From Escherichia phage EC.P1, in the sequence record PQ657772.1: a DNA stretch of 64,000 nucleotides; one strand, 5' to 3'. Both the position numbers and the translations under genes were made by a program. Numbering within the stretch: the first letter of the stretch is position 1; each line of letters opens with the position of its first letter. A model generated the notes under the pieces. The model searched no databases, was not told the origin of the DNA, and saw nothing but the letters and a program-made list of their open reading frames with translations. Positions 12,399-15,454 of the stretch are shown piece by piece.

Positions 12399-12431
12399 AT
12401 GGCAGTTTTTTCCAATTTAGAAGGGACCATG
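12399..12431 (+). repeat. 33-nt direct repeat encoding shared N-terminus MAVFSNLEGTM (copy 1)
   Basis: ATGGCAGTTTTTTCCAATTTAGAAGGGACCATG vs copy at 14555-14587 (2 mismatches). Confidence 0.8.
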
Positions 12432-14540
12432 ATGCCAACATTCAAGTTGGGTAAACGTGGTGCTTCTATTAATTTTGTAAACGATTCTGTCGCAATCAAA
12501 GACTTTTTAGGCGAAACGTTCCTACCTGTTAAGGTGGGAACTCCTAATGACGATGATTCCGCAGTAAACGTTAGGTATCTTGAAGATAACCCAAATGCTT
12601 TATTTGGCGTACTTCCACCAACAAATGACATTGGTAAAAATAACAACACTTATTTTCAAGTTGATTCTGAGGGTATTGTTGATATCTTTGCAAAAACAAA
12701 TGATGTTTGGGTAAAATCATTATACATTAATAAAAATGTCCTTTCCAGTGTTAACGGTGCTGATTATATCGGACTTATTACTGGAGGAACACTTCAACAG
12801 GCACAGTTTTACATAACTCCAGAAGAGTTTGGTGCAAAAGGTGATGGCATCACTGATGACACGGCGGCGGTTAACGCATGTGCAGTTTATGCTAAAGAAC
12901 ACAAAATCCAAATTCAAGCTGGTGGTAATTATCGTATCAGAACTGCTGTTTATTTGAATGATATTCAATGGTTTGGTGGTACAATCACTGGTAACGGTGG
13001 CACAATGGTATCGGTACTGAATAGTACAATCCAACAAGCAACATTAACAGGATGTTATTTAAAATTCTTTGGTGGTAATGGTAAATTTTATTTTAATAAA
13101 TTTATTAATATTACAAGTACTGCTGCATTTCTAATGCAAGGTATGACTGAATCAGGTACTATCGACTTCTGCTTTAATGAAATGACACAATGTAAGTACG
13201 GTGTTCTTCAGCAAGGCACTGGTGAGAAAATGACCGTTGGGCGTTATTCATACAACCACATCCATGATATATATGGTGATGCAATTGAATTGAACGTAGT
13301 CAACTCACATTACCCAGACGGATTTGTAATAGAAGGTAACTTGATTGAAAACGTAGATGGTACAAATGCACCAATTCCTCTTTCAAACTGGGGTATTGGT
13401 ATCGGTGTTGCAGGTTCTGGTCCTTATGATGTGAATGCTGATGATTCACAATATGTAAAAAAATTCGTTATAAAAAATAACCGCTTGTACAATGTCCGTC
13501 AATGTATTCACGTTGAGTTGGGTAAAGACTTTAAAATTCTCAATAATGAAGTTTATCCATCAACGTTGGTATCAATTGGTACTGGTTTGACAACCGCTGG
13601 TGTAATTACTTATGGTTCTGTTGATTTTATTATTGATGGCCTATCTGGGCATCTATTAAATGATCCATCAGTAACTAACCGTATGGTTTCTATTAACTGG
13701 GGCGTAACATCTGGTAAATTTGCTGGTCCTCCACGAAACTTTAAATTATGTAATCTCCACATTCCTGAGTCGTCTATTATTGTGTATACTTCAGGCTCTG
13801 ATAATTGGCTAAATACTACTGAACTTTCTAATATTACATGTAGTAGAATTCAATGGCGTGGATTGCCGTCATCTTCCAAGTTTAATAATATCAGTACTAA
13901 AGAACTTGATGTTATTGGACAACACCTTGCAACTGAAGGTGAAGGAGGGGGCTTATATACTCGCTCTAAATATACATATACCAACTGGACTAATTGTGTT
14001 GTTCAAGATGATTGTAACATATCAAAATATAGTTTCTCAAGAATGTATGTTGACCGTATTGACCAATCATCTAATAACTTTAAAGTAACCACTGCAATTG
14101 ATGGAACGGGTCATCGTGGACCTGTAGTAATACCTGTAGTTGAACAGTATTACGTGCCTTATGATGTTTTTCCTGGTGGGAGATATTTCTCAGCAGGAAC
14201 AATTATCCATAAACAATCAGGTGGAAAATTTATTGTTACAGTAGGTGGTTCTTTCTTTGGTCGATATGACACAATTAGACAAACAGTTGCAGGACAAACT
14301 TATATCGAAGCATTGGGTGTATCATGGGGTGATAATCAATATGCTAAAGCTGCTGGAACCGAAATCCTAATCACAGGAGCAGGGGAAAATGGCGAAGATT
14401 TAAAAACATATATCACTAGAGCAGTTTATGTTGTTAATAATGCGTATCGTATCGATATTGCCGATCCGATTGTTACTGCTACCGCAGCAGGGGCATTATT
14501 GAAAGCTGCTCAACCAATAACATATATCACCCTATCTTAA
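12399..14540 (+). CDS. tailspike / putative polysaccharide depolymerase (pectate-lyase-like right-handed beta-helix)
   Basis: Motif FGAKGDGITDDTAAVNACAVYAKEH typical of pectate-lyase-fold tailspikes; N-terminal 11 residues MAVFSNLEGTM shared with the next gene; AAAGAGGG RBS. Confidence 0.7.
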   Translation: MAVFSNLEGTMMPTFKLGKRGASINFVNDSVAIKDFLGETFLPVKVGTPNDDDSAVNVRYLEDNPNALFGVLPPTNDIGKNNNTYFQVDSEGIVDIFAKTNDVWVKSLYINKNVLSSVNGADYIGLITGGTLQQAQFYITPEEFGAKGDGITDDTAAVNACAVYAKEHKIQIQAGGNYRIRTAVYLNDIQWFGGTITGNGGTMVSVLNSTIQQATLTGCYLKFFGGNGKFYFNKFINITSTAAFLMQGMTESGTIDFCFNEMTQCKYGVLQQGTGEKMTVGRYSYNHIHDIYGDAIELNVVNSHYPDGFVIEGNLIENVDGTNAPIPLSNWGIGIGVAGSGPYDVNADDSQYVKKFVIKNNRLYNVRQCIHVELGKDFKILNNEVYPSTLVSIGTGLTTAGVITYGSVDFIIDGLSGHLLNDPSVTNRMVSINWGVTSGKFAGPPRNFKLCNLHIPESSIIVYTSGSDNWLNTTELSNITCSRIQWRGLPSSSKFNNISTKELDVIGQHLATEGEGGGLYTRSKYTYTNWTNCVVQDDCNISKYSFSRMYVDRIDQSSNNFKVTTAIDGTGHRGPVVIPVVEQYYVPYDVFPGGRYFSAGTIIHKQSGGKFIVTVGGSFFGRYDTIRQTVAGQTYIEALGVSWGDNQYAKAAGTEILITGAGENGEDLKTYITRAVYVVNNAYRIDIADPIVTATAAGALLKAAQPITYITLS

Positions 14541-14554
14541 AGGAGATTATAAAA

Positions 14555-14587
14555 ATGGCAGTTTTTTCTAATTTAGAAGGAACCATG
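14555..14587 (+). repeat. 33-nt direct repeat encoding shared N-terminus MAVFSNLEGTM (copy 2)
   Basis: See 12399-12431. Confidence 0.8.
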
Positions 14588-15454
14588 AAGAAGACCTTCA
14601 TACTTGGTAAAAATGGTGCACAAATTGCCACTAATGGTAATGTTGTTCAAATCCAGAACTACACGGGTACACAACTTCTTCCTGTTTCAGCAGGTGACCC
14701 AACCGCAAATACACACTTGGTTACATTGGGTTATTTGAATACACATAGCGGTGGTGGTGGCGGTTCCGGTATTTTACGTGGAACTATTGCACCATCTGAA
14801 TCAATCGGTGTAGATGGTGACGCTTACTTCTTAGTTGACAGTACTAATATTATTCAGATCTATATTAAAGACCTTGGTGTTTGGAAGCCTCTCCAAAGCA
14901 CAACTCCAGGTACTGATAGTTCTTACGTTACTACTGAAATCGTTCCTGTATCGGCATTTACATTAGTTCCTGGAACTACAGATCAATATACTTATTCTTT
15001 ACCTGAATCAGTACATGGTCGTGGGCCAGATATTATGGTTCAGCTACAGGGTGATCCTGGTAACATCCCACTTGACACTGTATTCCAAACTAACGTCACT
15101 GTGAGTGGTATTGGTGACATTACGATTGATGTTATTGGTCAAATCACTGAATATACAAGTGTCAAAGTCAACATCATAGGAGCAACAACAATGACAGTAC
15201 CTTATAGTAAATTAATTAATATAGCAGATTGGGTAGCATCTGGTGATGATTACACCATTACTGTTCCAGCGTCAGAACATAACCAAACACCTGACAATTT
15301 GTATATTTCTATATATTCAAATAAAACACCAGGCAGTACAGCAGCATCACCATTTGAACTGGTAATAACCGAAACTCAAATTGATGCAAGTGGTAATGTT
15401 ACATTCACTTCTGACGAAGCGTTTAGTGGTAAAATAGTAATTTCCGGTAAATAA
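14555..15454 (+). CDS. tail fiber-like protein sharing the N-terminal anchor of the tailspike
   Basis: Same N-terminus MAVFSNLEGTM (33 nt near-identical to 12399-12431); Gly-rich hinge GGGGGSG; AGGAGA RBS; followed by rho-independent terminator. Confidence 0.6.
   Translation: MAVFSNLEGTMKKTFILGKNGAQIATNGNVVQIQNYTGTQLLPVSAGDPTANTHLVTLGYLNTHSGGGGGSGILRGTIAPSESIGVDGDAYFLVDSTNIIQIYIKDLGVWKPLQSTTPGTDSSYVTTEIVPVSAFTLVPGTTDQYTYSLPESVHGRGPDIMVQLQGDPGNIPLDTVFQTNVTVSGIGDITIDVIGQITEYTSVKVNIIGATTMTVPYSKLINIADWVASGDDYTITVPASEHNQTPDNLYISIYSNKTPGSTAASPFELVITETQIDASGNVTFTSDEAFSGKIVISGK

Follow-up and report, generated by a model that had tools for sequence, protein, structure and literature searches.

Tailspikes that carry the P22 Head_binding domain, the T7 fibre N-domain, the Tail_spike_N domain of CBA120 and G7C or the tail-collar N-domain follow the same logic, with a particle-binding N-terminus joined to a swappable enzymatic distal part. 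Protein gp150 of phage Phi92 (PDB 6E0V/6E0W; 804 amino acids), a crystallised colanidase tailspike, is reported to hydrolyse colanic acid at its beta-1,4 Glc-Fuc bond (Xu 2025, cited in PMC13450770), and gp547 (ORF547) of phage PBECO4 is the colanic acid-degrading enzyme of Kim et al. 2015, as cited in PMC10059673. A family of 'virion structural proteins' (GAP32_221, CBB_227, phrog_10468) is found in RaK2-like phages. Here we examine two adjacent genes located between positions 12399 and 15454 of a 64,000-nucleotide stretch of Escherichia phage EC.P1 (record PQ657772.1; the whole stretch is called the window below). The first encodes a predicted colanidase tailspike of 713 amino acids, the second a 299-amino acid member of the virion structural protein family, and both start with the same module of about 105 residues (the N-module).

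The window region is 99.8% identical at the nucleotide level to Escherichia phage Ecwhy_1, a RaK2-like Asteriusvirus jumbo phage of E. coli. Several other Asteriusvirus jumbo phages are 98-99% identical to it, and PBECO4, 121Q and phAPEC6 about 80%. Database records of these relatives label the first gene 'colanic acid-degrading protein' or 'colanidase tailspike' and the second 'structural protein'.

One N-module on two different proteins

The two genes are ATG-initiated open reading frames (ORFs) on the + strand, at 12399-14540 (713 codons) and 14555-15454 (299 codons); all features given below for these genes lie on the same strand. As stated in the original prediction, both proteins start with the same 11 residues, MAVFSNLEGTM, and the first 33 nucleotides of the genes match at 31 positions, both mismatches being synonymous. 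Between unrelated sequences, such a match has a chance of roughly 1e-16. The shared part is real and its extent had been understated: BLASTP aligns residues 1-104 of the first protein with residues 1-110 of the second (41% identity, E 2e-19), so that the homology spans about 105 residues. The N-module occupies residues 1-105 of the colanidase (12399-12713) and, from an alignment of 17 proteins and an AlphaFold2 model, residues 1-112 of the 299-residue protein (14555-14890). No further ORF of the window contains it (phmmer; next best E 0.2).

A profile search with the N-module (190 hits) divides it into two parts; the exhaustive profile search was needed, as a word-indexed search with the 112-residue module alone retrieved three short proteins. 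In the colanidase, sub-module A (residues 1-65; 12399-12593) comprises the N-terminal peptide, three short strands and a short helix. Sub-module B (residues 66-104; 12594-12710) is a hairpin unit with the pattern G.xP...G..(G)D.Y...D....Y.K....W. The predicted secondary-structure pattern is alike in the models of both proteins, and in the 299-residue protein it consists of strands (14-35), a helix (58-63), a glycine-rich linker (64-71; 14744-14767) and further strands (73-112).

The junction between module and enzyme lies just after Trp104. Homology with the 299-residue protein stops at about residue 104, and convincing homology with Phi92 gp150 begins at about residue 106 (SLYINKNVLSS). The module is outside the coverage of both phrog_6117 and gp150, which has an unrelated N-terminus of 188 residues where the EC.P1 protein has the RaK2-like module of about 105. 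A mosaic origin of the colanidase gene is near certain.

Beyond the junction, residues 106-713 (12714-14537) form a neck, the colanidase body and a C-terminal domain. Phmmer matched residues 96-712 to 6E0V (E 6.5e-232), with 56% identity to gp150 over 617 residues (tblastn) covering the same catalytic body and C-terminal domain, and phrog_6117, 'colanic acid degradation', matched residues 94-711 (E 4e-252). The AlphaFold2 model, built on 28 homologues, has a predicted local distance difference test score (pLDDT) of 80 for the whole chain, with 361 residues above 90; it is confident from about residue 140, with pLDDT above 85 over most of residues 140-713. With this model, the top Foldseek match was again 6E0V (E 2.5e-60, TMt 0.89); further beta-helix tailspikes and AlgE epimerases ranked next. 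The body has the fold of a right-handed parallel beta-helix, which starts at the motif FGAKGDGITDDTAAV (residues 144-158; 12828-12872), aligned with the conserved FGAIGDGVTDDTQAI of gp150 in the phmmer match. The pectate-lyase-fold label first attached to this motif is right as to fold class, by structural match, and is not carried by the Pfam model PF12708 (Pect-lyase_RHGA_epim), which reaches only 17 bits on residues 143-225, where the gathering cut-off is 27 (E 0.005). Beside it, PF12218 gives another weak match below cut-off at the motif. Domain PF27800 'WcaM', named like the E. coli protein, is precomputed for P0219, a cluster representative with 99% identity to the EC.P1 protein, and for each of the 44 homologues; bacterial PF27800 homologues retrieved, such as the 594-residue P0227, are without a phage anchor, unlike the EC.P1 protein.

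Judged on these sequence and model matches, the 713-residue protein is almost certainly a colanidase beta-helix tailspike, in agreement with the depolymerase activity predicted originally, and by homology its substrate should be colanic acid. It is presumably trimeric and carried in the virion. The PBECO4 orthologue, also of 713 amino acids, has the same locus and the same N-module and differs from it only by sequence divergence (87% amino acid identity). It is the 547th of 551 annotated features and so fits gp547. The enzyme was thus already annotated and its orthologue already characterised, and there is nothing new in the enzyme assignment.

The 299-residue protein is matched by phrog_10468 (E 2.6e-92) and is a full-length member of the RaK2-like virion structural protein family (45-87% identity), unlike the members in RaK2 and K64-1, which are reduced to the N-module alone. 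Its 66 full-length orthologues (284-309 amino acids, 44-99% identity, 100% query coverage) contain no Pfam domain, and orthologues occur in every RaK2-like genus examined. Two of them have been found in virions: CBB_227 by mass spectrometry in CBB (5 peptides, 32% coverage) and ENKO_256c in fENko-Kae01, according to a liquid chromatography-tandem mass spectrometry (LC-MS/MS) note. The AlphaFold2 model (pLDDT 81.5) shows a confident all-beta region after the N-module, at residues 125-299 (14927-15451). It is probably a small component of the virion that carries beta-sandwich domains. The label of second fibre is unjustified by this evidence, which does not demonstrate a fibre.

The two C-terminal halves of the 299-residue protein (about 113-210 and 205-299) show a weak mutual similarity (domain independent E-value about 0.1), a sequence-level hint that the beta-sandwich domain of its C-terminal region may have been duplicated internally. 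Elsewhere in the window, no significant match to this C-terminal domain was found.

Gene gain, loss and reuse of the module

The gene order around this locus was compared in 13 genomes and is conserved in Asteriusvirus, Alcyoneusvirus (RaK2, K64-1), Mimasvirus (GAP32, CBB), Eneladusvirus (fHe-Yen9-04) and relatives infecting Xanthomonas, Salmonella and Klebsiella aerogenes. Genes for a ClpA-like protease, a structural protein, a sheath stabiliser, a NUDIX hydrolase and three leftward structural proteins precede a 'tail protein' gene, which is followed by the gene of an N-module protein, one or more giant fibre genes and a run of genes on to thymidylate synthase. The position of the 299-type gene, between the 'tail protein' gene and a giant fibre gene, is kept in the 13 genomes, and the colanidase gene is present at this locus only in Asteriusvirus. 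By tblastn, colanidase-bearing Asteriusvirus genomes have two copies of the N-module and every other genome has one, which makes the colanidase gene an insertion specific to this lineage, placed between the 'tail protein' gene and the conserved 299-type gene. Among sequenced isolates, tblastn found the N-module in RaK2-like jumbo phages only.

The inserted gene can be absent or reduced. Phage EJP2, which is filed under Asteriusvirus, is without it. In JP4, the 'colanic acid degradation' gene (4001-4606 of the locus compared) is down to 201 codons. It has lost residues ~151-659, and with them the whole beta-helix, through an in-frame deletion with breakpoints at GDG/GAGENG-like microhomology, and has kept the N-module and the last 53 residues. 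JP4 is a viable isolate, so the colanidase body is dispensable. In RaK2 (2501-2848) and K64-1 (9001-9348; coordinates of the loci compared), the syntenic gene encodes an N-module alone, of 115 amino acids, and a metagenomic homologue of 113 amino acids (P0077) also stands alone. The original prediction would have failed had the identity been limited to 11 residues with no structural domain; the shared N-terminus is instead an autonomous domain and not an 11-residue coincidence. The colanidase is an accessory gene, which has been gained, lost and deleted.

A distant colanidase-like gene (27% identity) is present at another locus in GAP32 (NC_019401.1, 70669-72315). The colanidase or 299-residue genes of vB_Ec-M-J, CMSTMSU and SD-1_S14 (OQ718158.1, MH494197.1 and OR699183.1) are split into several annotated ORFs, probably through frameshifts or sequencing errors.

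Both parts of the N-module are reused in proteins with other architectures. Sub-module A (profile positions 1-68) forms the extreme N-terminus of a 780-residue spike with a beta-helix and a Peptidase_S74 chaperone, a 705-residue Beta_helix spike, BNR-repeat fibres of 1200-1366 residues and several other proteins. The 780- and 705-residue spikes are encoded on one Eneladusvirus-like contig (Logan SRR18476386; 8001-10343 and 16571-18343), at a second locus by nrdD/nrdG, where the pattern of two proteins with one N-terminus recurs. Between these spike genes lie two genes of about 900 codons whose products have another common N-terminus, MSKKI.G.L.V. Sub-module B (profile positions ~66-111, G.xP...G.dGD.Y.D....Y.K....W) is a widespread repeat in collagen-like fibre proteins: a hidden Markov model (HMM) built without the glycine linker matched residues 66-104 of the colanidase (E 1.5e-10) and found 4-11 repeats in many collagen-like fibre proteins.

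The colanidase body is likewise found behind other anchors, namely Head_binding (P22), Phage_T7_tail, Tail_spike_N (TSP1/Gp66) and Phage_tail_fib (tail-collar). A three-part protein of 792 amino acids (P0222; Logan SRR31729320 contig, 6320-8698), encoded next to thymidylate synthase and after giant-fibre homologues in a related phage, combines the N-module, a colanidase and the last 92 residues of a 299-type protein (E 4e-16). A deletion fusing two adjacent genes of the window type would yield this architecture. The notion of a common module with interchangeable distal domains is thus well founded as to a real domain with swapped distal parts (stand-alone 115-residue form, 299-residue protein, colanidase, beta-helix spikes, BNR fibres), and the docking function ascribed to that module is a matter of interpretation.

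Possible roles of the N-module

We consider it quite likely that the N-module anchors both proteins to the periphery of the tail or baseplate, with the colanidase digesting colanic acid and the 299-residue protein displaying beta-sandwich domains. Docking taken by itself is reasonably probable: we infer it from the place of the module at the N-terminus, its extreme conservation, its stand-alone form, its combination with distal domains of unrelated kinds and the analogy with known tailspike anchors. The module, with its near-invariant peptide of 20 residues, its small beta unit and its hairpin unit, would fix each protein to the particle, leaving different tasks to the variable distal parts. 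The colanidase gene almost certainly arose in the Asteriusvirus lineage, where a horizontally circulating colanidase cassette, a beta-helix of the Phi92 gp150/WcaM type, became attached to a diverged copy of the N-module of the neighbouring gene, directly behind the terminal Trp of that copy (residue ~104). On a mucoid cell overproducing colanic acid, hydrolysis of this exopolysaccharide by the spike would allow the phage to reach its true receptor, and the 299-residue protein would be a conserved accessory virion protein displaying its beta-sandwich domains.

Several points weigh against this interpretation. Only part of the N-module may be an anchor, as repeats of sub-module B are common in fibre shafts. 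The best conserved segment of the module, residues 1-11, is unstructured in the monomer model (pLDDT below 50, as at residues 51-70 of the 299-residue model); this segment may become ordered only upon binding a partner, which such low values fit. The virion proteome table of phAPEC6 lists gp253 and gp256 and neither of the two genes between them; the colanidase and the 299-residue orthologue are both missing from it. In the RaK2 paper gp061 is unmentioned and the neighbouring gp062 was undetectable in virions. Finally, the PHROGs category of the colanidase is 'moron/auxiliary metabolic gene', not 'tail'. The evidence against virion carriage of the colanidase is limited.

The absence of the colanidase from the phAPEC6 table and its PHROGs category could be explained by a soluble enzyme, freed when the host lyses and removing colanic acid from cells nearby, with the N-module as a folding or trimerisation unit. 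The viability of JP4 without residues ~151-659 and the lack of the gene in EJP2 also fit such an enzyme. Phi92 gp150, its closest structural relative, is nevertheless deposited as a tailspike (6E0V), the same body follows virion anchors (P22 head-binding, T7 tail-fibre, TSP1) in other phages, the N-module family has been detected in virions by mass spectrometry (CBB_227, ENKO_256c) and JP4 has kept the N-module in frame, so that we regard a soluble enzyme as unlikely. Alternatively, the N-module might not dock to the tail but serve as a platform that bears other fibres, such as the giant ones encoded downstream. The 299-residue gene always precedes one or more giant 'long tail fibre' genes, and in RaK2 and K64-1 the giant fibres are missing together with the C-terminal part of the 299-residue protein. 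This correlation, however, concerns the C-terminal domains and not the N-module, which RaK2 and K64-1 keep without giant fibres; the role of the module is therefore independent of them, and a platform appears quite improbable.

Other alternatives concern the identical start of the two genes. In every genus, the N-module orthologues keep the peptide MA[VI]FSNL[ED]GTMKK.F.LGK.G almost without change, and seven of them are identical over the first 33 nucleotides. Recent gene conversion or recombination between the adjacent genes could have made these 33 nucleotides alike with no functional meaning: the genes are in tandem, 2.1 kb apart, and identity is sharply higher at the 5' end (18 of 22 residues, then 11 of 38; 16-19 of the first 22 against 7-11 of the next 38 when paralogues are compared). 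The same peptide and almost the same 33 nucleotides are nonetheless present in single-copy orthologues of at least six genera, with hosts ranging from Escherichia to Xanthomonas. A distance tree places the colanidase N-modules in a clade of their own, which evolves faster and lies outside all 299-type modules. Two paralogues from the same genome are no more alike than two from different genomes, and the paralogue pairs of each genome have no lineage-specific substitutions in common. On this alignment and tree, recent gene conversion was rejected as highly improbable. Between the window and PBECO4, identity is 77% for the colanidase N-module, 86% for the 299-type module and 89% for the colanidase body. 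The 11-residue identity is explained by strong purifying selection, which has acted on the N-terminal ~22 residues in the different genera, with some constraint at the nucleotide level. That a nucleotide element (translation initiation, mRNA structure or a homology patch for cassette exchange), and not the peptide, mainly drives conservation of the first 11 codons is doubtful. In its favour, among 11 orthologues of the 299-residue family, positions with the same amino acid also share the codon in 85.6% of cases within codons 1-11 (14555-14587) against 54.2% elsewhere, for pairs that are not phylogenetically independent, and these codons include an unusual conserved ACC despite an AT-rich genome. 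The amino acids are kept, however, where codons change (TCT/TCA, AAT/AAC, ACC/ACT), and distant homologues keep MAI[FY]SN[FL].GT in different codon contexts. Such an element could coexist with an anchor role.

An extension of the anchor interpretation, which we hold to be rather unlikely, takes the N-terminal ~20-residue peptide as a 'plug' that would fit, universally, a single docking socket in RaK2-like jumbo phages. Cargoes such as the colanidase, lectin-like domains of 299 type, beta-helix spikes and BNR fibres would compete for or share this socket, the 115-residue version of RaK2 and K64-1 would cap an unused one, and the conserved 33 nucleotides would be a recombination patch for cassette swaps. 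If this were true, the N-module would be an unnamed, engineerable anchor for loading new depolymerases on jumbo phages.

The case is one of ordinary and clear modular tail-protein evolution, and with the anchor interpretation it works like every modular tailspike system. The only new detail is the putative anchor itself, an unnamed module of about 105 residues without a Pfam family, specific to RaK2-like phages among sequenced isolates and with a precise junction after Trp104. It differs from the four anchors described above, as no profile match to PF09008 (Head_binding), PF03906 (Phage_T7_tail), PF18668 (Tail_spike_N) or PF12571 (Phage_tail_fib) was obtained, even at E up to 1. Literature searches found no paper describing this anchor and nothing relevant on RaK2 or K64-1 tail cryo-electron microscopy locating an N-module protein. 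Natural examples exist of the module alone, with four or more kinds of distal domain and in a three-part chimera, and the Trp104 junction is a rational splice point for grafting depolymerases onto jumbo phages of E. coli, Klebsiella and Salmonella of therapeutic interest. The module can also serve as a marker for finding receptor-binding proteins in largely unannotated jumbo phage genomes, and the gain, loss and deletion of the colanidase are relevant to host-range prediction.

Expression signals and neighbouring genes

Each of the two genes follows the stop codon before it after a gap of 14 nucleotides. Both have a Shine-Dalgarno sequence of their own, read from the sequence: AAGAGGG at 12385-12391, inside the gap after the upstream gene, for the colanidase, and AAGGAG at 14540-14545, overlapping the colanidase stop codon, for the 299-residue gene. 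A promoter and terminator scan of 11000-15700 gave no signal above shuffled expectation. Given this lack of promoter- or terminator-like signals above chance, co-transcription with the upstream 'tail protein' gene is likely.

The longest ORF of this 'tail protein' runs from a TTG at 11221 to 12384 (387 amino acids), and the start annotated in Ecwhy_1 corresponds to the ATG at 11257 (375 amino acids). A match in BFVD to a 375-residue protein suggested homology with the upstream tail protein, which a direct BLASTP comparison did not bear out (E 1.2), and repeats of sub-module B suspected in the 387-residue protein were unsupported by the HMM (E 9.6). Phrog_13565 matches residues 13-387 of the longer ORF, which contains a short collagen-like G-X-Y run below the Pfam cut-off.

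Downstream, two giant 'long tail fibre' genes (15572-20506 and 20656-26376) encode proteins of 1644 and 1906 amino acids. At least five distinct fibre or spike proteins had been proposed for this phage; two of the five are these giant fibres, which are tandem paralogues, and a virion with multiple appendages is plausible. Hair-like tail appendages have been seen on phAPEC6 and CBB, and flagella have been reported or suggested as receptors for relatives of this phage group. GAP32, CBB and fENko-Kae01 have one giant fibre gene and RaK2 and K64-1 none. The two giant fibre proteins of the window are 53% identical over about 1580 residues, both start with MYSIKTDLD and both end in the same C-terminal domain.

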